Below, piece by piece: positions 23,537 through 58,215 of a stretch of 64,000 nucleotides of DNA (position 1 is the first letter of the stretch; every line of letters starts with the position of its first letter). The DNA lies in NCBI GenBank assembly GCA_018817165.1, contig JAHITY010000101.1, positions 278 to 64,277 on the forward strand, written 5' to 3'. The notes below the pieces were generated by a model. The model saw only the letters and a list, made by a program, of their open reading frames with translations. It did no database searches and was not told where the DNA came from. Both the position numbers and the translations under genes were made by a program. The DNA comes from Candidatus Omnitrophota bacterium (GTDB lineage: Bacteria > Omnitrophota > Gorgyraeia > B26-G9).

Positions 23537-24674
23537 AAAGACAATTCATTATCCGGCTTGGGCTGAAATTAATTTGGCAAATATTAAGTCAAATTTTTTT
23601 CAGTTGAAACGCCAAGCCGGTAAAGGCGTTAAAATGCTTGCGGCTGTAAAAGCCGATGCGTATGGTCATGGCATGCTGGAAGTTTCTCGGCAGCTGGAAA
23701 GATGTGGGGTTGATTATCTGGGAGTTGCCAGTGTTAATGAGGCAATGGTTTTGCGAGCCGGGAAAATTAAAGCTCCAATTTTGGTTATGGGTAATGTGGT
23801 TGATAAAAGTCAGATGAAACAAGCAATTAATGCACAAATAAGTTTGACGGTCGCGGATCTGAGGGGCGCTTTAAAGCTAAATAATAATGTTTCTGCTGGA
23901 AAAAAAGCAAAGGTTCATATTAAAGTCGATACAGGTATGGGGCGAATTGGAATATGGCATCAGGAAGCTTATGAGCAGATAATTAAAATTTTTAAAATGA
24001 AAAATCTGCTGATTGAAGGGGTTTTTACTCATTTCCCCAGCGCGGATACGGATCTTGAATTTACTAAACAGCAAATAATTATTTTTGAGAAATTGATTAA
24101 TAAATTAAAACAAAATAATATTACTATTTCGCTGGTTCATGGGGCAAATAGCAGCGCGGTTTTTCACTTAAAAAATTTCAAACCAAAACTATTTAATATG
24201 GTTCGGCCGGGGCTAATGCTTTATGGTATGTATCCGGACCGAGCAATGAAAGCAAAGTCTTGTTTTAAGTTAAAGCCAGTATTAGAGTTAAAGAGCAGGA
24301 TAGTTTTTTTAAAAACAGTTGATCAAGGCAGAGCAATCAGCTATGGCCGGACTTATATTACCCAAACTAAAACTAAAATTGCCACTGTATCTATAGGCTA
24401 TGCCGATGGATATTCACGAGCTTTGTCCAATAAAGCGCAGGTTTTAATCAAAGGTAAATTATTGCCGGTTGTCGGGAGAATTTGTATGGACCAGCTTATG
24501 GTTGATATTGGTCTGGCTTCTCGGGTAAAGCTAGGCGATATTGTTACTTTGATCGGCAGGGAAAAAAGGCAAGCAATATTTAGCGAGACTCTTGCAACTT
24601 TATGTGATACTATTCCTTATGAGATTACTTGCGGTATCTCTGCCAGGGTCAAGCGGGTATTCAAAAAACATTGA
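23526..24674 (+). CDS. alr: alanine racemase
   Basis: AVKADAYGHG PLP-lysine motif; C-terminal beta domain. Confidence 0.9.
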   Translation: MLNKKTIHYPAWAEINLANIKSNFFQLKRQAGKGVKMLAAVKADAYGHGMLEVSRQLERCGVDYLGVASVNEAMVLRAGKIKAPILVMGNVVDKSQMKQAINAQISLTVADLRGALKLNNNVSAGKKAKVHIKVDTGMGRIGIWHQEAYEQIIKIFKMKNLLIEGVFTHFPSADTDLEFTKQQIIIFEKLINKLKQNNITISLVHGANSSAVFHLKNFKPKLFNMVRPGLMLYGMYPDRAMKAKSCFKLKPVLELKSRIVFLKTVDQGRAISYGRTYITQTKTKIATVSIGYADGYSRALSNKAQVLIKGKLLPVVGRICMDQLMVDIGLASRVKLGDIVTLIGREKRQAIFSETLATLCDTIPYEITCGISARVKRVFKKH

Positions 24675-24715
24675 CTTTAAAAGGCATAATGTTATAATTA
24701 AATTCAGGATTATTA

Positions 24716-25065
24716 TGGATAAAAAATGCTTAAATAAAAAAGGGTTATCTTTAGTAGAAGTTGTGCTATCAGCACTATTACTTACTGTAGTAGTGGCGGC
24801 TTTGCTTGCTACTTATCGAAATGCCAGTAATTTAATGGGTCTTGCGCGGAATAAGCTGATTGCTTTAAATTGGGCGGAATCTATTATTGAACGAGAAAGA
24901 TCGGATTGTAGAAACGCTTATATTGACCCGGCTGATACTGCGGCTAATCGAAACTATCTGATAGACGAAAAGGCTGCTCTGGCTCCTGTTATTACAAGAA
25001 TAAATCACGGCGCGCCGCAAGTGCATTTACAAGAGATTAAAGTTACGATAAACTGGACTGAATAA
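24716..25065 (+). CDS. type IV pilin-like / pseudopilin (prepilin N-terminal motif)
   Basis: KKG|LSLVEVVLSALLL… class III signal-peptide-like N-terminus; ATG at 24716 chosen because the upstream in-frame ATG overlaps alr. Confidence 0.6.
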
Positions 25066-25066
25066 T

Positions 25067-25828
25067 ATGAAAATAAATCGTGGTTTTACCTTAATCGAAG
25101 TGCAGATTTCCGCAATGTTAATGGTTGTTGTCCTTGTCGCCACTGGAGTGATTTTTTATTTTTCTTTAGCAACAATAAGATATATGCAGGATGCTTTTAG
25201 TGTTTATACAAATGCTTCAACAGCAATGAATCTGATTACCAATGAGGTCATCCGTTCTAATTGTTATGGATCATGGACAGCGCCTGCACACGCACAGCCT
25301 GTAGGCAGCTTTTACGGTGCTAATGGTTATCAACAGGAGCTTAGCCCCGGGGTCTTTGGTCTTGACGCTGCTAATTCTTATAATGCGGATATGCCGACAT
25401 TGGGAGATTCCAATGCGATGAATGTTTGTGATATGACTGTGGGAACAGGTCTTTTTTTGCGCCAGGCAACACAAGCTTCGTTTATTAGGGGTGATTTATC
25501 AGATGTTGCCGGGGATTTTCCTTCGCATGAAAAAGTGCAAATTTATGGGGAGAATTACTTTGATCCTGAGTGGACGAGAAATCGCTTGATGATTGATCGA
25601 AATGATGGAAATCCGCCTCAAGCAATCGCGGATAATCTCATTCAGTTTGATTTTCAGCCGATTGCCTATAATTGCGTGCATGTTCTTTTAACCGTAGAGG
25701 GTATGGTTGATGATCCGATGGCTGGTGTGGGAGTGAGAAGGCATCGAATTACGCTGAGCAAACAGATCACTTTGCGCTGCGCTCCTTCGGTTACGCCAAT
25801 ACCTGGCCCAACTGGAACAACATGGTGA
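25067..25828 (+). CDS. prepilin-type N-terminal cleavage/methylation domain protein (minor pilin)
   Basis: MKINRG|FTLIEVQISAM… canonical G-FTLIE motif. Confidence 0.7.
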   Translation: MKINRGFTLIEVQISAMLMVVVLVATGVIFYFSLATIRYMQDAFSVYTNASTAMNLITNEVIRSNCYGSWTAPAHAQPVGSFYGANGYQQELSPGVFGLDAANSYNADMPTLGDSNAMNVCDMTVGTGLFLRQATQASFIRGDLSDVAGDFPSHEKVQIYGENYFDPEWTRNRLMIDRNDGNPPQAIADNLIQFDFQPIAYNCVHVLLTVEGMVDDPMAGVGVRRHRITLSKQITLRCAPSVTPIPGPTGTTW

Positions 25829-25829
25829 A

Positions 25830-26171
25830 TTGATGAGCAAAATAAAATTTTTATTGGATAGAAATATCCAGAAGAAGACAACCAGAGAAAAAGCCCAGGC
25901 AATGGTTGTGGCATTTATTTATATTAGTATTGTTTCCTTGATCGCGGTTTATATGATGGCTTATGCGAATAATCTGCATAATGTTGTGGTCAGAAATATT
26001 AAGCACAGTATGTCGTTTTATGCGGCAGAAGGGGCTTTAATCCGGGTGATGTCCTTACTTTCCTTAGGGCAAGCAACTCCCGCGGCGATGAATACTGCGC
26101 CGATGACTGTTGGAATAGATATAGTTGTTGTGGGAACGAATCAAAAAATTAGAGCAACTGTTAATTGGTAG
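25830..26171 (+). CDS. PilX-N-like pilus assembly protein
   Basis: single N-terminal TM plus YAAEGAL motif reminiscent of the PilX N-terminal domain. Confidence 0.4.
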   Translation: MMSKIKFLLDRNIQKKTTREKAQAMVVAFIYISIVSLIAVYMMAYANNLHNVVVRNIKHSMSFYAAEGALIRVMSLLSLGQATPAAMNTAPMTVGIDIVVVGTNQKIRATVNW

Positions 26172-26226: not shown

Positions 26227-27045
26227 ATGGTGCCAAAAATTAAACGATTTTTGCAAAAAATAAAGCAGCTAAATAAAGAATATTTATTACTTTGTGTGAT
26301 AGTTACTTTGATCGGAATATTGATCTATTCTTCCACGGCAACATCGCAAACATCTCCGGAAGAAATAACTTTAACAACTTTTTATCCTTGTCCGTTTGGG
26401 ATTTATGATCAGCTTACTTCTTCTATATATATTGATTTTGATAATGTGGCTCGTTGGTTTGATCCTAGCGGAGAGAGTCAGCTGGAATCTTTACGGATTT
26501 TTAATGGGATGATTGTAAATTTAGTTGCTGGGCCAAGCGGTACATGGACTATTAATTTTGTGACCGGCAATGCGTTTCTTAATATTGTTACGGCAGATAA
26601 GCTGGTAATGACTGGGCCAGCGCCTCCGCCAACATATGAAATAAATGGCGGTAATTATGTGTGGGATATTGCTGAAGGCATGCTAATTACAGAATGTACG
26701 GCGGGTGATGTTGTGATCATCGGCGATGATCCGGAAAAAGGTTTGGTTAAATCAACTGAAAAATTTGATTGTCGAATTGCCGGGATTGTTTCTTCTGACC
26801 CCAAAATATATATGGGAGCAGGAGAAGATAGCACGCCATTAGCTTTAGCCGGGATTGTCCCATGCAATGCAATCACAGAAAATGGAGCGATCAAACGAGG
26901 TGATTTGCTGGTAAGTTCTTCAATGCCAGGTTACGCGATGAGGGCTTCGAGCAAAGAAGTCAAGCCTGGGATGTTGGTCGGCAAAGCTTTGCAGGAATTA
27001 ACTTCAGGTCAGGCTAAAATTTTTGTTTTAGTCAATAAAAATTAA
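26227..27045 (+). CDS. hypothetical membrane-anchored protein, paralog A of tandem pair
   Basis: N-terminal TM; shares with the next gene DPSG(E/Q)S(Q/D)L, VWDIAEG, PKIYMG, IKRGD(L/I)LV(S/T)SS(M/E)PGYAM, PGM(L/I)VG. Confidence 0.6.
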   Translation: MVPKIKRFLQKIKQLNKEYLLLCVIVTLIGILIYSSTATSQTSPEEITLTTFYPCPFGIYDQLTSSIYIDFDNVARWFDPSGESQLESLRIFNGMIVNLVAGPSGTWTINFVTGNAFLNIVTADKLVMTGPAPPPTYEINGGNYVWDIAEGMLITECTAGDVVIIGDDPEKGLVKSTEKFDCRIAGIVSSDPKIYMGAGEDSTPLALAGIVPCNAITENGAIKRGDLLVSSSMPGYAMRASSKEVKPGMLVGKALQELTSGQAKIFVLVNKN

Positions 27046-27061
27046 AATTAAGAGCTTATTT

Positions 27062-27904
27062 ATGAAGAAAAAAACAAATCATTTTATAATAGTTTTTATT
27101 CAGATAATCCTGCTATTGTTAGGATCAGCGGTTTTGAGTTTTGCCCAGCAAGGGGCTATTAAATCGCTAGTTTTGGATACTCATGGATTCCGTTATGATA
27201 CCGCCGGGGGTGAAGTCAGAGCGGTGTATAATACTTTAGTCGCTAAACAGTTTAATGATTCACAGCTAGATGTCTTGAACCGTACTTGTTTTGGGGACCC
27301 TAGCGGACAGAGTGATTTGCATCATCTGACAGTTATTAATGGTTTGCAGTTTGATGATACGGATATGGGAACCATGGTTATGAGTGCTGTGCCTATGGGG
27401 GCGTACTCAATTAATTTTCAAGATAATTTTCTCGGAGGAGAAGCCCAGTTTGCTACTTGTACTGCCGTTAAATTTGTAATGGTAACTCCATATCCTGATG
27501 CGAGGAATCATGAAGGTAAAAAAGTATGGGATATTGCTGAAGGAATAAAGGTTGAAGCCGGTGACGCTTGCGATGTCGTTGTTATTAGCAAAGATAATGA
27601 TTTGACTGTTACTCGTTCAACTGTTAAATTTGATACTAAAGTGGCTGGAGTTATATCTGAGGCACCAAAAATATATATGGGAGATATGGCAGGCAATAAG
27701 CCTTTGGCTTTGTCCGGGGTTGTTAAGTGTAATGTGAATACGCAAAATGGACCGATTAAAAGAGGTGATATTCTAGTCACATCATCAGAGCCTGGGTACG
27801 CGATGAAAGCCAATGAAAATCAAGTATTGCCGGGTATGATTGTCGGCAGTGCTTTGGATAATTTTGATCAGGGCAAAGGAAAAATTGATATTCTAATTAA
27901 TTAG
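27062..27904 (+). CDS. hypothetical secreted protein, paralog B of tandem pair
   Basis: cleavable signal peptide (…SFA-QQ); full-length paralog of the previous gene. Confidence 0.6.
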   Translation: MKKKTNHFIIVFIQIILLLLGSAVLSFAQQGAIKSLVLDTHGFRYDTAGGEVRAVYNTLVAKQFNDSQLDVLNRTCFGDPSGQSDLHHLTVINGLQFDDTDMGTMVMSAVPMGAYSINFQDNFLGGEAQFATCTAVKFVMVTPYPDARNHEGKKVWDIAEGIKVEAGDACDVVVISKDNDLTVTRSTVKFDTKVAGVISEAPKIYMGDMAGNKPLALSGVVKCNVNTQNGPIKRGDILVTSSEPGYAMKANENQVLPGMIVGSALDNFDQGKGKIDILIN

Positions 27905-27930: not shown

Positions 27931-27962
27931 AAAGCAGAAGACAGATTATTCTGTCTTCTTTG
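27931..27962 (+). terminator. rho-independent terminator
   Basis: GAAGACAG-attatt-CTGTCTTC then TTTGTT. Confidence 0.6.
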
Positions 27963-32098: not shown

Positions 32099-33175
32099 AT
32101 GCTGACAATGGATTTCTTGCTCAAGCTGATTGTTGATAGAGGCGCCTCGGATTTACATCTTACAGTAGGGATTCCGCCGCAGTTGCGGATTGGCGGGCAA
32201 TTAACTTATACGACCAGTGAGCCGGTAGATCCAGAAACACTAAAAACATTGGCATATAGCCTTTTGACCAGTGATCAGATAGCATGGTTTGAACAAAGAA
32301 AAGAACTTGATTTTTCCTGCGGTTTGGAGGGAGTCAGTCGTTTTAGAATAAACTTATATTATCAGCGCGGATCGATTGCCATGGCCGCAAGGGTTATTCC
32401 GTTTATTATTCCGACAATTGAACAGTTGGGATTACCGGAGATAGTTAAAGAATACGCGGATAAACCAAATGGATTAGTTCTGCTTACTGGGGCAACTGGT
32501 AGTGGTAAATCAACTACTCAGGCAGCGATCATTGATTATATTAATAAGCGCAGAAGAGCGCATATAATTTCTGTGGAAGATCCGATTGAGTATTTGCACA
32601 AGCATCAGCTTTGTACAATTAATCAACGCCAGCTGGGTACAGATACTCTTTCTTTTGCTGAAGCATTAAAGCATGTATTGCGTCAGGATCCGGATATTGT
32701 AGTTATTGGCGAAATGCGGGATCTTGAGACAATTCAGGCAGCTTTGACTCTAGCGGAAACCGGGCATTTAGTTTTTGCCACATTGCATACCAGCAGTGCG
32801 GTTAATTCAATTACCCGAATAGTCGATGTGTTTCCAGCGCATCAGCAGCAGCAAATACGGGTGCAGCTTTCATTGGTATTAGTCGGAGTTTTAGTTCAGA
32901 GATTAATTCCTAATGCTCAAGGAGAAGGCAGGTCCTTAGCAATGGAGATTATGACTATGATTTCGGGAATCCAGAACCTGATCAGAGAAAATCAAGTACA
33001 TCAGATCTATTCACTGATTCAAACCGGACGACGTTTCGGGATGAGAACAATGAATCAGGCATTGTGTGATTTAGTATTAAGCAATAAGATAACTTTTGGC
33101 GAGGCTTTAAAACAAACAGCAGATGAGCAAGAATTAAATTCATTAGTTCAGAAGCAAAACAATAAAAACAAGTAA
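32099..33175 (+). CDS. pilT: type IV pilus retraction ATPase PilT
   Basis: Walker A (GATGSGKST), AIRNLIRE-type region, His box; 358 aa. Confidence 0.9.
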   Translation: MLTMDFLLKLIVDRGASDLHLTVGIPPQLRIGGQLTYTTSEPVDPETLKTLAYSLLTSDQIAWFEQRKELDFSCGLEGVSRFRINLYYQRGSIAMAARVIPFIIPTIEQLGLPEIVKEYADKPNGLVLLTGATGSGKSTTQAAIIDYINKRRRAHIISVEDPIEYLHKHQLCTINQRQLGTDTLSFAEALKHVLRQDPDIVVIGEMRDLETIQAALTLAETGHLVFATLHTSSAVNSITRIVDVFPAHQQQQIRVQLSLVLVGVLVQRLIPNAQGEGRSLAMEIMTMISGIQNLIRENQVHQIYSLIQTGRRFGMRTMNQALCDLVLSNKITFGEALKQTADEQELNSLVQKQNNKNK

Positions 33176-36263: not shown

Positions 36264-37157
36264 ATGATAAGTAAACAGAAAGTTTATGGTCTTATCGGTT
36301 ATCCGGTAAAGCACAGTTTTTCAGCGGCAATGCATAATGCCGCTTTTTCTCATTTAGGGATAAATGCTTTGTATACTTTATTTGAGATAAAGCCTGATGA
36401 TTTGGAAGCTTTTTTGCTGGAAAGAACTGATCTGGCTGGGTTTAATATTACAATTCCGCATAAAGTTTATGCGAAAAAAATTCTAGAAACAAAATTTAAG
36501 GGTAGTAATCCCGGAGCTGATCAATACAGCGAACTTGTCGGAGCAATTAATACCGTTGGTCGTATAGATGATGGAAAAGTTTGGTGGGCAAACACAGATG
36601 CTCCGGGTTTTGTAAAATCATTAAAGATGGATTTAGGATTTGCAAAAACAAAAAATAAAGACGCATTGGTTTTGGGCTGCGGCGGAGCCGGTAGGGCTGT
36701 TATTGCTGGGTTAAGCTCAGAAGATAATGGTTTGGTCAGAGATATATATGTTAGTGAAATTAATAAGGATAATGTTACTGCTGTAAAAAAACAGTTTGAA
36801 TGTTTTTCAAAGGTTACTGATAAATTAAAATTTATTCAGAAAGAAGAAATCGCGGAAAAAATAAAGGATTGCTCTTTACTTGTGAATACAACTCCCATTG
36901 GCATGAAAGATGACAATATCAGTTTGATTGATAAAGAGCTTTTACATAATAATTTAATGGTTTATGATGTTGTGTATAATCGAGAAACTAAGCTGATAAA
37001 AGATGCAAAAGCGCAAGGATTGAAAGCTATCGGTGGTTTAGGCATGCTTTTATACCAAGGAGTACTTGGTTTTAATTATTGGGCAGGCAAAGATATTGCT
37101 CCTGTGGATATAATGCGACAGGCTTTAGAAGGAGAACTGGAAAAATGCCGGATTTGA
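36264..37157 (+). CDS. aroE: shikimate dehydrogenase
   Basis: VYGLIGYPVKHSFSAAMHN… and NITIPHK motifs. Confidence 0.85.
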   Translation: MISKQKVYGLIGYPVKHSFSAAMHNAAFSHLGINALYTLFEIKPDDLEAFLLERTDLAGFNITIPHKVYAKKILETKFKGSNPGADQYSELVGAINTVGRIDDGKVWWANTDAPGFVKSLKMDLGFAKTKNKDALVLGCGGAGRAVIAGLSSEDNGLVRDIYVSEINKDNVTAVKKQFECFSKVTDKLKFIQKEEIAEKIKDCSLLVNTTPIGMKDDNISLIDKELLHNNLMVYDVVYNRETKLIKDAKAQGLKAIGGLGMLLYQGVLGFNYWAGKDIAPVDIMRQALEGELEKCRI

Positions 37158-38155
37158 TTATAAAAAGTATGGTTGTTCTTTTTGGTTGTTTGATCGGTAG
37201 TTTTCTTAATGTTTGTATCTATCGCATGCCGCGTTCTGGGAAAGTCGCGCCTGAAGATTTTTTGAAAATATCCGGGAGTAAGGAGCATTCAGATAAACTT
37301 TGGGAAGATTTGATAAGCAGCGGATATATTGATGAAGATGGTTATGTTGAGAAAAAATTTAAAAAGCTTAGAAAAAAAAACCAGCTGGCGAAATTCGAAT
37401 TAGCCGGTGCCTACGCGAAAAGCAAAAAACAAATTTTTAGAATTCTCGATAAATCCTGTGAATTATCAATAGATAAACCCAAACGTTCTTTTTGTCCGAA
37501 TTGTCAAAAACAAGTTCTTTGGTATGATAATATCCCGCTTTTAAGCTATTTAGCCTTAGGCGGAAAATGTCGTTTTTGCAAAAAGCCGATTCCTTTTCGC
37601 TATTTCTTTGTAGAGTTTCTTACGGCCAGTCTTTTATTGGTAGTCTATAGTTTTTTTGGCTTGTCAGTGCAATTTTTTACTTATGGAGTTTTGACTTGTG
37701 CCTTGATTGTCTCGACATTTATTGATTTCGATTTTTTTATTATTCCTGATGAAATAACTTTGGGCGGCTTAATTGTCGGGATAGTTTTGTCAGGAATTTT
37801 TCCGCAACTTCATGGCGCATCCTCTTGGCTTGACTCATTGATTAAATCCGGCTTGGGTATTTTGGCTGGCGGCGGAAGTATTTATCTGATCGGGCAGTTT
37901 GGTGAAATTATTTTTAAAAAAGAAAGTATGGGCGGAGGAGATGTGGAATTTCTCGCCATGATCGGATCAGTTTTGGGGTGGCAGATGGCTTTGCTGATAT
38001 TTTTTCTCGCTCCTTTTTTTGGAGCGGGTGTGGGAATCTTTGCTAGGCTTACCAAGGGTGCTGAAATAATCCCTTATGGTCCGTATCTTTCATTAGCTAC
38101 ATTTATCGTTATTTTATGGGGAAATAATATTCTGAAATTTTTATTCTATTTTTAA
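37145..38155 (+). CDS. pilD: prepilin peptidase (A24 family, PilD-like) with an about 75-aa insertion in the N-terminal cytoplasmic domain
   Basis: FGCLIGSFLNVCIYRMP…, zinc tetracysteine CPNCQ…CRFC, and catalytic region DFDFFIIPDE…. Confidence 0.85.
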   Translation: MPDLIIKSMVVLFGCLIGSFLNVCIYRMPRSGKVAPEDFLKISGSKEHSDKLWEDLISSGYIDEDGYVEKKFKKLRKKNQLAKFELAGAYAKSKKQIFRILDKSCELSIDKPKRSFCPNCQKQVLWYDNIPLLSYLALGGKCRFCKKPIPFRYFFVEFLTASLLLVVYSFFGLSVQFFTYGVLTCALIVSTFIDFDFFIIPDEITLGGLIVGIVLSGIFPQLHGASSWLDSLIKSGLGILAGGGSIYLIGQFGEIIFKKESMGGGDVEFLAMIGSVLGWQMALLIFFLAPFFGAGVGIFARLTKGAEIIPYGPYLSLATFIVILWGNNILKFLFYF

Positions 38156-53363: not shown

Positions 53364-55376
53364 ATGGGAGTAGAGCAATATAAGGAGTTATTTGTCGCGG
53401 AATCTGAAGAACATCTGCAGATTATTAATAATTCCGTGCTGAGCCTTGAAAAAGACCCAGCAAATTTAACTATTTTAAATGAAATTTTCCGCTGCGCTCA
53501 TACCTTAAAAGGTATGTCAGCAACAATGGGATTTGAATCGTTAACGCGGCTTACCCATAAAATGGAAGATGTTTTGGATATCTTTCGCAGTCAAAAAATT
53601 CCAGTTACCTCCGAAGTAGTAGATAAGCTTTTTAGCTGCCTAGATATTCTTCAAATGTTGCTTGAGGAAATTAAAACAGGAGAAGACCTTAATTTAGATA
53701 TAGAGTCGATAATTCTGCAGCTGCAAAGCGTTACTCCTAATATTTCCTCAGCAGAGTTAGACCAAAAAATAGATGAAAAAAAAGAGCTTTTAATAACAGC
53801 ACTTGAAAAAGAACACCTTTTAAATGTTATGAAAGATAAAGACACGAGGATTTATAAAATCAATATTTCCCTTAGCCACGATTGTCAATTAAAATCTGTT
53901 CGGGCTTTTATGGTTTTTAATAAATTGAATTCAATCGGAGAAATAATTAAATCCGTACCTTCAAGCGAAGAATTAGAGTCAAACCATTTTGGCTTATCTT
54001 TTTGTTTGCTGTTGATGACGAATAGTTTGGCTAAAAAGATAGAACAAATATTATCCAAAGTAATGGAAGTTGAAAAAGCTGTTGTAACTCAAATAAGAGA
54101 TATTAATCTTATCCCGCTGGAAAAAATAAAAGAAATAAAAGTTAAAGATACTGTTCAAACAGGTTCTGCTGATATTGACTCAGCTCAGCAAAAAGATTTA
54201 GCTAAGCAATTTGGCTTTAAAAAAATTCAAAGTATCAGAGTCAGTACTCAGCGCTTGGATAAATTGATGAATTTTGTGGGAGAATTAGTTATTTCTAAAA
54301 TCCGTCTGATGCAGATAGCACAGACACATCAATTGCAGCCTTTAAATGAAATATTAACCAATATTGACCGTTTGACTGGTGATTTGCAGGATGAAGTTAT
54401 GCAGGCCAGACTTATTCCCATGGCTCAGGTATTTGACCGTTTTCCGCGGATGGTAAGGGATTTAGCGAGAAGTGAGAAAAAACAAATAAACTTTGATATT
54501 TCCGGAGGAGAAATAGAACTGGATAGAACAGTTCTTGATGAAATAGCCGATCCTTTGGTTCATCTTCTACGCAATAGCGTTGATCATGGGATAGAATTGC
54601 CTAGTGTGCGTAAAGAAAACAATAAAAACCCAGTAGGGACTATAAAATTAAGCGCGTATAGAGAAAGGACTTTTGTTTTAATTGAAGTCTCTGATGATGG
54701 AAAAGGTATAGATCCAGCCACTATGCGTGAAGTTGCTGTAAAAAAAGGATTTATGACTGAAGAGGAATTGGCAAAACTCAGTGACAGAGATATCTTGAAC
54801 CTGATAACAATGCCTGGTTTTAGTTCAACTTCAGAAATAACCGATACTTCCGGCCGTGGTGTGGGAATGGATGTTGTAAAAATGAAGATTGAGTCTCTGG
54901 GCGGTAGTTTAGTATTTGACTCTGTAGCGGGAAAAGGCAGTAATTTTAAACTAAAACTACCGTTGACAGTCGCTATAATAAGGGCAATGTTGGTGGAAAT
55001 AAACAAAGAAATATACGCGACTCCCATAGCGAGTATTGTAGAAACAGTAAAGGTTTCTAAAAAAAGAATCAAGCATATAGAAAAATTCGAAGTAATTAAT
55101 TTGCGGGATGAAGTACTTCCGCTTTTAAGATTAGAAAAGATCTTAGGTGTGCCTATTCGGGAAGCAGAAAGTTCTAGTGAAGACATTTCCATAGTAGTTG
55201 TGGATAATGCCGGGAAAAAGGCAGGATTAGTTGTGGATCGGGTGGTGGGGCAGCAAGAGGTTGTAATTAAAACGGTGGGGTCTTTATTAAAAGGAATAAA
55301 AGGATTCTCGGGGGCAACAATTTTAGGCGATGGCAGTGTGGCTTTAATTCTGGATGTTGCTACATTAGTCGGCTAG
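53364..55376 (+). CDS. cheA: chemotaxis histidine kinase CheA
   Basis: HPt (HTLKGMSATMGF), dimerisation, HATPase (DDGKGID…GRGVGMDVV) and CheW-like C-terminal domain. Confidence 0.95.
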   Translation: MGVEQYKELFVAESEEHLQIINNSVLSLEKDPANLTILNEIFRCAHTLKGMSATMGFESLTRLTHKMEDVLDIFRSQKIPVTSEVVDKLFSCLDILQMLLEEIKTGEDLNLDIESIILQLQSVTPNISSAELDQKIDEKKELLITALEKEHLLNVMKDKDTRIYKINISLSHDCQLKSVRAFMVFNKLNSIGEIIKSVPSSEELESNHFGLSFCLLLMTNSLAKKIEQILSKVMEVEKAVVTQIRDINLIPLEKIKEIKVKDTVQTGSADIDSAQQKDLAKQFGFKKIQSIRVSTQRLDKLMNFVGELVISKIRLMQIAQTHQLQPLNEILTNIDRLTGDLQDEVMQARLIPMAQVFDRFPRMVRDLARSEKKQINFDISGGEIELDRTVLDEIADPLVHLLRNSVDHGIELPSVRKENNKNPVGTIKLSAYRERTFVLIEVSDDGKGIDPATMREVAVKKGFMTEEELAKLSDRDILNLITMPGFSSTSEITDTSGRGVGMDVVKMKIESLGGSLVFDSVAGKGSNFKLKLPLTVAIIRAMLVEINKEIYATPIASIVETVKVSKKRIKHIEKFEVINLRDEVLPLLRLEKILGVPIREAESSSEDISIVVVDNAGKKAGLVVDRVVGQQEVVIKTVGSLLKGIKGFSGATILGDGSVALILDVATLVG

Positions 55377-55453: not shown

Positions 55454-56053
55454 ATGGCTGAGTTAACAAGCGTTCAACTCGATGCTTTAAAAGAGATGGG
55501 TAATATTGGAGCGGGGAACGCGGCAACTTCGCTTGCTCAGTTAATTGGTGAAATAGTTAACATTAGTGTTCCGGAAGTAAAAGTACTTCCGATTGAATCT
55601 GTTGCTGAAGCTCTGGGAGGAGCGGAAAAACAGGTTTATATTATTTATTTAGAAGTTGAGAAAGAGATGCAGGGAACAATGTTGACTATTTTTTCACAGG
55701 AGACAGCTTTTTTCTTTGTTAAAAAACTATTGGGTTCTAGTGAGATTGATATGACATCGGATATTGCTCAATCAGCGTTAAAAGAAGTTGGATCAATTCT
55801 CTGCGGATCTTATTTAAGCGCGCTTAGTCAGCTGGTTAATATGAGTTCGGTCGCAACGGTCCCGGCAATGGCTTTTGATATGTTGGGGGCGATGCTTAAT
55901 TTTGTTTTGGTGGAGATTGGGCAAATAGCGGATGAAGTTTTTTTAGTGGACACTGAGTTGGCTGTATCGCAAAAAAAACTGGAATGTTCTCAGCTTTTTT
56001 TACCCAAACCAGATACTTTAGAAAAAATACTGACTTCAATAGGAATGATGTGA
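55454..56053 (+). CDS. second CheC/CheX-family phosphatase
   Basis: LKEMGNIGAGNAATSLAQLI… and VGSILCGSYLSAL. Confidence 0.75.
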   Translation: MAELTSVQLDALKEMGNIGAGNAATSLAQLIGEIVNISVPEVKVLPIESVAEALGGAEKQVYIIYLEVEKEMQGTMLTIFSQETAFFFVKKLLGSSEIDMTSDIAQSALKEVGSILCGSYLSALSQLVNMSSVATVPAMAFDMLGAMLNFVLVEIGQIADEVFLVDTELAVSQKKLECSQLFLPKPDTLEKILTSIGMM

Positions 56054-56061
56054 GGGAGAGT

Positions 56062-58215
56062 ATGGATAATGCCAAAGAAGATCTAATTTTTGCGCTGGAT
56101 ATCGGAACTCGCAAGGTTGTGGGTATTATTGCTCAAAAACAAGATGATGTGATACATATTTTAGATGTGGAAAAAGTTGAACATCAAACTAGAACAATGC
56201 TGGATGGGCAGATTCATAATATTAATGAAGTTGCGAAAAGCGTAATAAATATAAAAGAGACATTAGAAAAAAGATCAGGATTGTCTTTATCTAAAGTAGG
56301 AGTTGCTGTAGCGGGCAGAGCGCTCAAGACAGTAAAGGCAAAAATTTCAAAAGAACTTTCTTCGAATAATGAAATTACCGAAGATCAGGTTTTAAATTTA
56401 GACTTAGAAGCGGTTAGTAGTATTTTAAAAAATGCGGATAATGAGATTGGCCACGAAGATTTTTATTGTGTAGGATACAGTGTTGTCTGTCATGAACTTG
56501 ATTCTGAGGTTATCGGTGATTTAGTCGGGCATTTTGGCAAAAGTATGGGCGTAGAGGTTATCGCAACATTTTTACCGCGAATAGTTCTCGATAGTATGTT
56601 GAGTGTTTTGCGCCGGGCAGGGCTTGAAGTCAGTAACCTTACGCTTGAGCCGATAGCAGCTTTAAACGCGATTATTCCTAAAGACATAAGACGCTTAAAT
56701 CTGGTGCTCTTAGATATTGGGGCCGGGACTTCTGATATAGCGCTTACCAAAGAGGGTAGCGTTTTTGCTTATGGCATGGTTCCTGAAGCCGGAGATGAAA
56801 TCACTGAGTTAATCTGCGAGAAGTTTATTCTTGATTTTAATACCGCGGAAAATGTAAAAAGACTGATATCTAAACAAGAAACAGTTTCATTTAAAGATAT
56901 TTTAGGCAAAGAGCATAATCTAGTATCCGCCGATATTATTGATCTGATCAAGCCGAGAATTGCCAAGCTTGCTGATTCAATCGCTAATCAAGTTCTTGAG
57001 CTTAATCAAAAAGTTCCTAATGCTATTATTTTAGTGGGAGGCGGCAGTTTGACTCCTCTGTTTGATCAGCAACTTTCTCGGGCTTTTCCGCTTGATTTAT
57101 CGAATATCGGCATACGTTTGCCGGAAATGGTTTCAAATATTATAGATAAATCCGGCAAACTAAATAGTCCTGATATGGTTACACCTTTGGGGATTTGCAT
57201 AATGACGGCTAATTCTACTGGTTTAAAATTTCTCGAAATATATGTTAATGAAAAAAGAGTTAATGTCTTAGATATGCAGCAAAGTCTAGATGTTTTGAGC
57301 GCGCTTGTAGTTGCCGGTGTTAGTAAAATGAAGTTGTATGGTAGGATAGGCAGGGCTATTTGCGTTGAAGTTAATGGCAAATTAACAGTAATAAAAGGTG
57401 AAATGGGCAGGCCTGCGGAAATTAAGCTTAATGACCAAGCTGCTGATCTTATGACAAAAATAAAAAGTGGAGATAAGATATTTTTTAAGGATGCGATTGA
57501 TGGCTTAGACGCTCAGGCAGTCATCGGTGATATTGTTCAAATCAAGCCTTTAAATATTCAATTTAACGGTAATCCTATGGAAATTATGCCCAAAGTTACG
57601 ATAAACGGAGAGCTAGCGGATCTTGCTGCTGATTTACCAGACCGAGCAGTTATTCAGGTTATGTCGAATGTTACGGCAAGGGATGTTTTAGAGTCAATGA
57701 GCATTAATCCTGAAGAATTGCAGGTAAGAGAGATAGTGGTCAGAGTGAATAAAGAACCTAAGATTATATCTCAAAGTAGTTTTTCTTTGCTTGTTAATGG
57801 GCAGAAAGTTGGATTATTTTCAAATCTCTCAGATGGCAGTGTTATTGAATTTGAGAAAGATAAACCTATATTTTATAAGATTAAGGATATTGTTCAAATG
57901 CCTGACAGTGGTGATGATGTCGAAGTTTTTTTGAACAAAGAAAAGCATGTTTTAAAAGGACCTCCAGGCAAGATTTATATGAATGGGCAACTTGTAGGCC
58001 CAGAAGAGTTTATTATTGACCGGGCAGAGATTATTACAAGCCGAGGCGGTATTTTGCCGCCAACAGTTGCGCAGATTTTAGAGCGCTTACCGATAAGTAT
58101 TGAAGACCAAAGAGGTAAACAGCTTAAAATTACGGTAAATGGAAATCCTGGAGGATTTACAACTCCCCTTTCTCATGGTGCGGATATTAGTATAGATTTT
58201 TTAGACAGGTATTAA
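56062..58215 (+). CDS. actin-fold (ASKHA; FtsA/PilM-like) ATPase with about 340-aa C-terminal tandem about 65-aa repeats; function unknown
   Basis: N-terminal ALDIGTRKVVGII…, DIGAGTSDIAL, ILVGGGSLTPL (phosphate 1, phosphate 2, adenosine motifs); C-terminal five repeats of a hydrophobic-x-VNG…DGxxI-like unit. Confidence 0.6.
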   Translation: MDNAKEDLIFALDIGTRKVVGIIAQKQDDVIHILDVEKVEHQTRTMLDGQIHNINEVAKSVINIKETLEKRSGLSLSKVGVAVAGRALKTVKAKISKELSSNNEITEDQVLNLDLEAVSSILKNADNEIGHEDFYCVGYSVVCHELDSEVIGDLVGHFGKSMGVEVIATFLPRIVLDSMLSVLRRAGLEVSNLTLEPIAALNAIIPKDIRRLNLVLLDIGAGTSDIALTKEGSVFAYGMVPEAGDEITELICEKFILDFNTAENVKRLISKQETVSFKDILGKEHNLVSADIIDLIKPRIAKLADSIANQVLELNQKVPNAIILVGGGSLTPLFDQQLSRAFPLDLSNIGIRLPEMVSNIIDKSGKLNSPDMVTPLGICIMTANSTGLKFLEIYVNEKRVNVLDMQQSLDVLSALVVAGVSKMKLYGRIGRAICVEVNGKLTVIKGEMGRPAEIKLNDQAADLMTKIKSGDKIFFKDAIDGLDAQAVIGDIVQIKPLNIQFNGNPMEIMPKVTINGELADLAADLPDRAVIQVMSNVTARDVLESMSINPEELQVREIVVRVNKEPKIISQSSFSLLVNGQKVGLFSNLSDGSVIEFEKDKPIFYKIKDIVQMPDSGDDVEVFLNKEKHVLKGPPGKIYMNGQLVGPEEFIIDRAEIITSRGGILPPTVAQILERLPISIEDQRGKQLKITVNGNPGGFTTPLSHGADISIDFLDRY

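Follow-up and report, generated by a model that had tools for sequence, protein, structure and literature searches.

The pre-neck appendage (tail spike) protein gp12 of phage phi29 carries at its extreme C-terminus a beta-stranded barrel, D4 (MEROPS/Pfam Peptidase_G2, PF11962; PDB entries 3SUC and 3GQH). Two sources describe D4 as an 'autochaperone': one presents it as a tandem beta-tulip that is needed for trimerisation (10.1101/216911), and trimerisation is also its role in the other (PMC4690869). Here we describe two adjacent genes in a 64,000-nucleotide stretch (the window) of contig JAHITY010000101.1 from a Candidatus Omnitrophota bacterium. Their products, paralogs A and B, are predicted to be exported, very probably end in a divergent barrel of this kind, and are encoded directly 3' of three pilin-like genes. 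We read A and B as a short tail-fibre-like effector that may be displayed by a minor-pilin tip complex, and give this reading a probability of roughly 55%.

The tips of type IV pili provide the second point of comparison. In classical operons, the gene order is fimU-pilVWX-pilY1, and the minor-pilin tip complex FimU-PilVWX (PilHIJK) displays PilY1/PilC, an adhesin that is not itself a pilin. A tip role for minor pilins and PilY1 is described in PMC5979040 and PMC7541494. A 2026 preprint reports a plug of 12 residues that keeps PilC/PilY1 at the tip by augmenting a beta-sheet of PilK, and finds a fusion of PilK with this plug to be functional (10.64898/2026.09.18.752573). In modular pilins, which are thought to sit at the pilus tip, the effector is covalently attached; Streptococcus sanguinis PilB, with a von Willebrand factor A (vWA) module, and PilC, with a lectin module, are examples (PMC9934059).

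The paralogs and their C-terminal module

Genes A (26227-27045, forward strand; 272 amino acids (aa)) and B (27062-27904, forward strand; 280 aa) encode true paralogs with 42% identity over 228 aa (BLASTP, E = 6e-55). Protein P0001, of a Candidatus Omnitrophica metagenome-assembled genome, is 100% identical to B. Conserved blocks run along both proteins: DPSGESQL in A and DPSGQSDL in B, VWDIAEG, KFD, PKIYMG, PLALAG or PLALSG, IKRGD(L/I)LV(S/T)SS.PGYAM, and PGM(L/I)VG(K/S)AL. An earlier note on this DNA had picked out the pair; its coordinates are right, and all of the blocks that it listed are present.

In both proteins, an export signal or anchor is followed by a short N-motif that is degenerate in B, a beta-rich shaft of about 100 aa (containing DPSGQSDL in B) and the C-terminal module. 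B begins with a typical Sec signal (aa 1-28) composed of MKKK, a hydrophobic core and an SFA|QQG site, and AlphaFold2 (AF2) models residues 2-24 as a helix. A begins with a basic tail and the sequence N-K-E-Y, followed by a hydrophobic helix that would act as an anchor (Y19-Y34; aa 19-34). Both proteins are predicted to be extracytoplasmic, which agrees with the earlier proposal of an anchored A and a B with a signal peptide.

The N-[KG]-E-Y sequence immediately before the hydrophobic helix is invariant in all A-type paralogs, including at 26227-26330 in the window and in L015 (3114-4974), and is not a class III prepilin signal. Type IV pilins were rejected as an identity for A and B, since neither protein matches N_methyl or TIGR02532 or has a class III signal. 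The helix of A follows N-K-E-Y without the prepilin glycine, the site in B is of the Sec type (SFA|QQ), and the G|(F/M)xxxE motif is carried by pilin-like genes 1 and 2 upstream.

The C-terminal module spans aa 141-272 of A (26647-27042, forward strand) and aa 151-280 of B (27512-27901, forward strand). Direct searches with A and B gave no match in Pfam (E <= 1), NCBIfam, PHROGs or PDB sequences, and the module profile also found no match among PDB sequences. Modelled alone with AF2, the module of B is all-beta, with a predicted local distance difference test score (pLDDT) of 94.4 and a predicted TM-score (pTM) of 0.87. The best TM-score in a Foldseek search of the PDB is to pre-mature phi29 gp12 (3suc; TMq 0.70, root-mean-square deviation 2.7 Å), and 3gqh_A is matched with TMq 0.60. 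In BFVD, E-values reach 1e-12, with TMq 0.79-0.86 at 24-35% identity. These matches are to uncultured tailed-phage proteins, several of them labelled 'Preneck appendage protein (barrel)' (one such match has TMq 0.82) and others tail fibre or tail protein, and also to giant-virus proteins.

Profile comparisons add to the fold match. Aligned by hhalign to gp12 residues 651-854, the module alignment scores E 2.9e-5 with a probability of 74%, and N-T-W-S691|D692-F-A-E695 and GVISE of gp12 are paired with K-V-W-D-I-A-E and GVISE of the module family. PF11962 (Peptidase_G2, intramolecular chaperone (IMC) autoproteolytic cleavage domain) matches nine of 32 sampled family members. In protein P0076, the module profile (4e-56) and PF11962 (37.1 bits; cut-off 25) match in the same place, at the module start. 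Given the AF2 fold match, the hhalign score and these PF11962 matches, the module is very likely a divergent member of the phi29 gp12 D4/Peptidase_G2 autochaperone barrels by both homology and fold. The earlier note had found no family for it; profile and Foldseek searches now supply one, and because this superfamily is a known one, the module is not categorically new.

The module resembles gp12 D4 in forming a barrel at the extreme C-terminus of its protein, in a D-x-A-E motif that falls on D692...E695 at the module boundary, and in a conserved GVIS-E segment. It differs in being shorter (~130 aa compared with ~163 aa), and only its first half aligns by sequence. The shaft of about 100 aa is not a beta-helix enzyme as in gp12. 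In addition, A and B are exported by a bacterium rather than assembled in the cytoplasm of a phage-infected cell, such that ATP-dependent release cannot apply.

Conservation within the module was counted over 383 copies from 244 proteins, at ungapped positions. The D and E of the boundary D-x-A-E, which aligns exactly on gp12 D692...E695, are conserved in 97% and 97.5% of copies and are invariant in the module seed alignment. The residue before the D is aromatic (Y, F or W) in 213 of 342 copies. In gp12, we take the bond between S691 and D692 to be the scissile one and the acidic residues to be catalytic; these residue roles, and ATP-dependent release, were reportedly described by Xiang et al. 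in 2009. By analogy, putative cleavage motifs W|DIAE are located at 26665-26676 in A and 27530-27541 in B. Autocleavage at these motifs is plausible, at somewhat less than even odds.

The same counts bear on the tripeptide RGD, which the earlier note had called invariant. This holds among close relatives. Across the family, just 101 of 370 copies (~27%) retain the R, while G (100%) and D (98%) are nearly always kept. RGD is therefore not a meaningful motif but a subfamily accident within a structural G-D turn, and was rejected as an integrin-type motif.

Two other groups of barrels and chaperones deserve comparison. Peptidase_S74 domains (K1F endosialidase, T5 pb1, MYRF) likewise provide a C-terminal trimer-folding template that is then auto-cleaved. 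However, as characterised in PMC4690869, they have an alpha-helical core with beta-hairpin tentacles and use Ser-Lys catalysis, a fold unrelated to that of the A/B module. A Peptidase_S74 chaperone was rejected on the grounds of this wrong fold, the all-beta module model and the lack of a PF13884 (Peptidase_S74) match in A and B. The second group consists of beta-tulip capsid decoration and cement proteins, which are the top PDB matches of the module by Foldseek E-value (Pam3, phi29 gp8.5 base, HFTV1, BB1, TW1). Like the predicted module, such proteins (lambda gpD, P74-26 gp87, phi29 gp8.5 base, Pam3, TW1) are trimer-forming barrels. Unlike it, they are stand-alone capsid binders, with 10-18% identity and with neither a D-x-A-E boundary motif nor a fibre context.

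The decoration-protein matches, together with Phage_cement_2 matches in two module family members, would suit an explanation in which the barrel is a permanent functional head, that is, a beta-tulip knob that binds proteins or ligands, stays attached and mediates adhesion. There is no extracellular ATP for a release of the gp12 type, and giant proteins of the Candidate Phyla Radiation (CPR) contain the module as internal tandem copies, which shows that it need not lie at the end of a protein. Conservation can be argued on both sides: no other part of A and B is as well conserved as the module, whereas the tips of adhesins tend to be variable, and a ligand-binding head would be expected to be variable rather than the most conserved region. 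Against a permanent head, the D-x-A-E that falls on the cleavage site of gp12 is 97% conserved, and genome-encoded fibres have the module strictly at the C-terminus; we regard this explanation as unlikely.

Distribution of the module and its link to type IV filaments

Searched against 1.84 billion cluster representatives, the module profile matches 29,441 of them at E <= 1e-3. Full-length relatives of A and B are few and come from Omnitrophota; the final ~130 aa are also the terminus of many fibre-like proteins that are otherwise unrelated, collagen-like and GNVGIGTT-repeat proteins among them. Of 89 genome-encoded proteins found, 84 are listed, and all of these except three have a GD-L-S motif 51-54 residues before the C-terminus. 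In Chitinophaga and relatives, the module ends collagen-triple-helix proteins of ~1,000-1,200 aa that are encoded beside a PorV paralog. In Phormidesmis, it ends a 442-aa protein (P0054) in the baseplate/fibre locus of an extracellular contractile injection system (eCIS), adjoining a Peptidase_S74 fibre. Giant proteins of 1,500-5,766 aa (P0058-P0194) carry two to six internal copies, with 215-770 aa after the last copy; those with a source name (P0058, P0076, P0244) belong to CPR/Patescibacteria (Woesebacteria, Uhrbacteria), and giant CPR proteins were seen with two or three internal copies. These hosts are or resemble trimeric fibres, in keeping with a trimer-nucleating role for the module. 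A and B would probably form a trimeric fibre.

Two of these settings have a defined gene content. The Bacteroidota cassette encodes a protein of ~168 aa, the PorV paralog (~392 aa; PF19572, E 8e-42), a protein of ~135 aa and the module-ended collagen-repeat protein. It is present in L047 (5129-10411) and about 40 other loci (L025-L086), in Chitinophaga, Chryseobacterium, Emticicia and Parapedobacter, and is tandemly duplicated in L040, L050, L058 and L080. The Phormidesmis priestleyi locus (L006, 1-15329) contains Phage_base_V, PAAR, gp25, Baseplate_J and an eCIS_core toxin. Its two adjacent fibre genes have different types of C-terminal chaperone, gp12-D4-like in P0054 and Peptidase_S74 in the other, such that fibres of both classes stand side by side.

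A phage-derived fold and a homologue in an eCIS locus could mark A and B as what is left of a prophage, tailocin or eCIS fibre locus, which came to lie beside pilin genes by chance and has no functional link to a pilus. No module match was found by tblastn in 50,697 cultured phage genomes, and a scan of IMG/VR gave one partial match only; with close relatives absent or nearly absent from these collections, the subfamily is cellular. The neighbourhood lacks phage and baseplate genes and consists of housekeeping genes, with thiL-tsaE-tsaB-alr upstream and ilvD-ilvB downstream, and the GC content of the unit is the same as that of its flanks. The cassette is conserved across metagenome-assembled genomes down to ~40% identity, and the pilin fusion described below speaks for a link. 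The remnant explanation was rejected on its flanks, native GC content and conserved cassette, and is highly improbable.

The neighbourhoods of module genes were surveyed in 78 loci from species-representative genomes, found with a seven-sequence alignment. Prepilins were counted with a conservative regular expression, and 'near' means within four genes of the module gene. Among Omnitrophota open reading frames (ORFs), 19 of 126 near the module gene have a prepilin motif, compared with none of 137 farther away; the corresponding figures in other phyla are 1/445 and 0/430. Counted by locus, a prepilin motif is near the module gene in 12 of 19 Omnitrophota loci and in one of 58 elsewhere, and the Omnitrophota loci with no pilin match are mostly cut by a contig end. 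The earlier note had proposed that A and B are pilus-associated and that co-occurrence with pilin genes be checked. Within Omnitrophota, this proposal gains support from pilin adjacency in several arrangements and from the fusion described below. Elsewhere, the module almost never co-occurs with pilins, so that the refuting observation named in the note, homologues that never co-occur with pilin genes, is made by half.

The pilus link is real but confined to Omnitrophota. Given the single positive locus outside this phylum, the link is a property of the Omnitrophota subfamily with the motif ITLTTYYPxPxGxY and not of the module. This N-motif, [ED]xITLTTYYPxPxGxY in full, directly follows the signal peptide or anchor in 12 of 24 Omnitrophota module proteins and in none of 65 elsewhere. 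In A, it reads ITLTTFYPCPFGIY (aa 47-60; 26365-26406, forward strand). It is an Omnitrophota-specific motif of the mature N-terminus and a candidate docking element.

Several gene arrangements make up the Omnitrophota link. In one, a cassette of three pilin-like genes and two or three paralogs lies between alr and ilvD, and is recognisable down to ~40% identity (L001-L003, L009, L010, L012, L013, L015). In L004/L020, the module protein follows PilM-PilO-secretin-ATPase-PilC and two pilins and precedes two more pilin-like genes. L017 has a PilX-like gene, three prepilins and then a 545-aa fibre, while in L036 a PilX-like gene and two prepilins are followed by three fibre paralogs and another prepilin. 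Finally, PilM-like and PilO-like genes precede a 532-aa fibre in L023. Since several loci are duplicates or of shared ancestry, at least four independent arrangements are counted and no P-value is given.

Some of these loci have further features. ExbB/ExbD-like genes lie 5' of the pilin clusters in L017 and L036. Cys-rich secreted proteins of 177 aa (L036, 9950-10483) and 231 aa (L023, 10369-11064) are encoded 3' of the fibre genes, and a small conserved ORF of 78-82 aa (ITEIGIVAG.IWHYLD) is found in L017 (5395-5643) and L023 (6375-6611).

Proteins in which the two components are joined connect A to a pilin-like subunit more directly. In L014, a single ORF of 386 aa encodes a PilX-like protein fused in frame to an A-type paralog. 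The PilX-like part has 39% identity to gene 3 of the window over residues 19-113 of the latter (E 4e-17). The A-type part (43% identity, E 1e-58) starts exactly at the N-motif, which means that the pilin-like domain replaces A's own tail and anchor. P0195, which stems from another metagenome and also lies in this tsaE-tsaB-alr cassette, is the same fusion at 71% identity; present in two diverged assemblies, the fusion is not an assembly artefact. In both fusions, the N-[KG]-E-Y segment is replaced by the PilX-like domain. The fusion is the strongest argument that A may work physically with a PilX-like subunit.

An alternative that retains the filament is that the fibres are cargo. The three pilin-like genes would build a pseudopilus like that of the type II secretion system (T2SS), and this would drive A and B, either as such or as trimers, out through a secretin to give free or surface-anchored fibres. 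Points in favour are a weak resemblance of gene 1 to GspI/XpsI as well, the ordinary Sec signal of B, and the secretin, T2SSE and T2SSF encoded directly upstream in L004. Outside Omnitrophota, moreover, the module uses other export routes (an eCIS, or a PorV/type IX secretion system neighbourhood). An in-frame PilX-like::A fusion is hard to square with a released substrate, however, and A has a membrane anchor instead of a cleavable signal. T2SS substrates are also rarely encoded inside a minor pseudopilin operon. Secretion as cargo is judged improbable. A functional association of A and B with a type IV filament is, on balance, favoured. A literature search found no account of the module within minor-pilin operons, and none of the N-motif or of a fusion to a pilin.

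A candidate fibre effector in the PilY1 slot

The reading preferred here, a tail-fibre-like effector at a minor-pilin tip, can be set out as a mechanism. Each protein would bring an export signal or anchor, the short conserved N-motif, the beta-rich shaft and the autochaperone barrel. By analogy with gp12, the barrel would nucleate trimerisation of the shaft from the C-terminus, after which self-cleavage at the near-invariant [YFW]|D-x-A-E may remove it. Fibres of this class would have been recruited in Omnitrophota to minor-pilin operons of type IV filaments, where A and B would fill the PilY1 slot directly 3' of PilV-, PilW- and PilX-like genes and act as an effector (adhesin). A would be tethered to the PilX-like subunit through its N-terminal helix, its N-motif or both, with B as a soluble partner.

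The gene order of the window (PilV-like, PilW position, PilX-like, A, B) mirrors fimU-pilVWX-pilY1 and recurs in orthologous cassettes. With this order, the precedent of the PilK plug and the existence of modular pilins, A and B are most plausibly a tip effector. Like PilY1/PilC, they are predicted to be non-pilin exported proteins, and are encoded directly after a pilX-like gene. The likeness does not extend to sequence or fold: no Pfam or NCBIfam match to the PilY1/PilC beta-propeller was found in A or B, and the fold search returned no propeller. A and B are also much smaller (~30 kDa compared with > 100 kDa), would be trimeric, and have their candidate docking motif at the N-terminus rather than at the C-terminus. 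The fusions in L014 and P0195 follow the plan of modular pilins, with a pilin-like module covalently followed by an effector module. In the window, by contrast, the pilin-like and effector parts are separate genes, the effector is tail-fibre-like with an autochaperone instead of a lectin or vWA module, and the pilin part is of the PilX_N type without a canonical class III signal.

Three PilX fusions would be ill-suited to a single tip complex, which suggests a hetero-oligomer of one anchored chain and two soluble B-type chains. An A:B hetero-trimer nevertheless remains a doubtful proposition. Three fibre paralogs are encoded in a row in L001 (327/298/295 aa), L015 (302/311/315 aa) and L036 (424/408/407 aa), an arrangement that is compatible with hetero-trimeric fibres. 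In its fullest form, the proposal is that a phage fibre design, with a conserved dock at the N-terminus, a shaft that can be exchanged and an autochaperone that removes itself, has replaced PilY1 on the Omnitrophota pilus tip, such that ITLTTYYPxPxGxY docks on the PilX-like pilin and the fibre consists of one A and two B. This complete version is speculative and rather unlikely.

Several points weigh against a tip-borne fibre. Gene 3 itself has no direct Pfam match; four of nine orthologues match PF14341 PilX_N (best E 1.7e-4), a profile of gene 3 finds no match in the PDB, and the PilX_N assignment is weak. In the full-length AF2 model of B, residues 29-154 are without usable structure (pLDDT < 50), which leaves the trimeric fibre a putative one. 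The alignment to gp12, with its probability of 74%, spans only the first ~80 module residues, A and B give no direct match to the PF11962 Pfam model at E <= 1, and the serine that precedes the aspartate (S691 in gp12) is not conserved in the module family. Release of gp12 D4 needs ATP, which is lacking beyond the cytoplasm; the module may therefore be neither cleaved nor released. At the level of neighbourhoods, L005/L021 is a genuine exception that has the N-motif and no nearby pilin genes, and most cassette loci share ancestry and hence are not independent observations. Adjacency and fusion are no proof of a location at the tip.

The gene unit, its surroundings and implications

The three pilin-like genes, A and B appear to form one five-gene unit bracketed by a promoter-like site and a hairpin, which bears out the single operon suggested earlier. 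The sigma-70-like promoter site (24671-24698, forward strand) consists of TTGACT, a 16-nucleotide spacer and TATAAT, with a TG, and has 11 of 12 matches to consensus. It lies directly 3' of alr and 5' of gene 1, whose ATG at 24715 is preceded by AGGA at a distance of 6 nucleotides. Gene 1 (24715-25065, forward strand; 116 aa) is a minor pilin-like, PilV/GspI-like gene with the class III signal KKG|LSLVEVV. It matches PilV TIGR02523 (E 2.7e-5) and N_methyl (E 0.0016), both under the curated cut-offs, and has orthologues in L001-L003, L009 and L013-L015. Gene 2 (25067-25828, forward strand; 253 aa) occupies the PilW/GspJ position. It has the class III signal NRG|FTLIEV, an N_methyl match that is also under the curated cut-off (E 0.0084), and conserved orthologues. 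Gene 3 (25830-26171, forward strand; 113 aa) is PilX_N-like, with KAQAMVVAFIYISIVSLIAVYMM...FYAAEGAL. Downstream, the terminator-like hairpin (27936-27959, forward strand) has a 10-bp stem and a 4-nucleotide loop and begins 32 nucleotides 3' of the stop codon of B; its T-tract is weak and imperfect (TTGTTCTCAT). Antisense ORFs at 26655-26894 and 27508-27813 were rejected as genes, as they lie inside conserved coding sequence and are without support.

Other type IV filament genes of the window are scattered singly among amino-acid biosynthesis genes. A prepilin peptidase (A24_N_bact and Peptidase_A24; 37079-38155) is encoded between the genes for shikimate dehydrogenase and chorismate synthase. 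A PilT-like T2SSE ATPase (32099-33175) lies between ilvN and ilvC, with the same arrangement in L001-L003. In a 743-aa protein (55984-58215), an actin-fold ATPase region of the FtsA/MreB/PilM-like type (weak PilM_2, E 1e-4) is joined to one that resembles ThiS, and a CheA gene (53364-55376) is located just upstream. Across the window (1-64000), nearly all long ORFs are on the forward strand and the GC skew is positive throughout (0.15-0.28).

Placing the module makes a very large unannotated family approachable at the level of function: Pfam leaves most of its 29,441 cluster representatives unlabelled, and its members form the ends of surface fibres in Omnitrophota, Bacteroidota, Cyanobacteria and CPR bacteria. 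For type IV pili, the placement points to a previously undescribed kind of effector, in which a phage-type fibre would occupy the PilY1 slot with a natural pilin fusion behind it. The predicted self-cleavage at W|DIAE and the interactions among A, B and the PilX-like protein are directly testable with recombinant proteins. Given the ultra-small size and probable host dependence of Omnitrophota and CPR bacteria, attachment organelles are central to their biology, and these organelles are experimentally untouched. If the proposal is true, Omnitrophota would gain a swappable device for attachment to host or prey.

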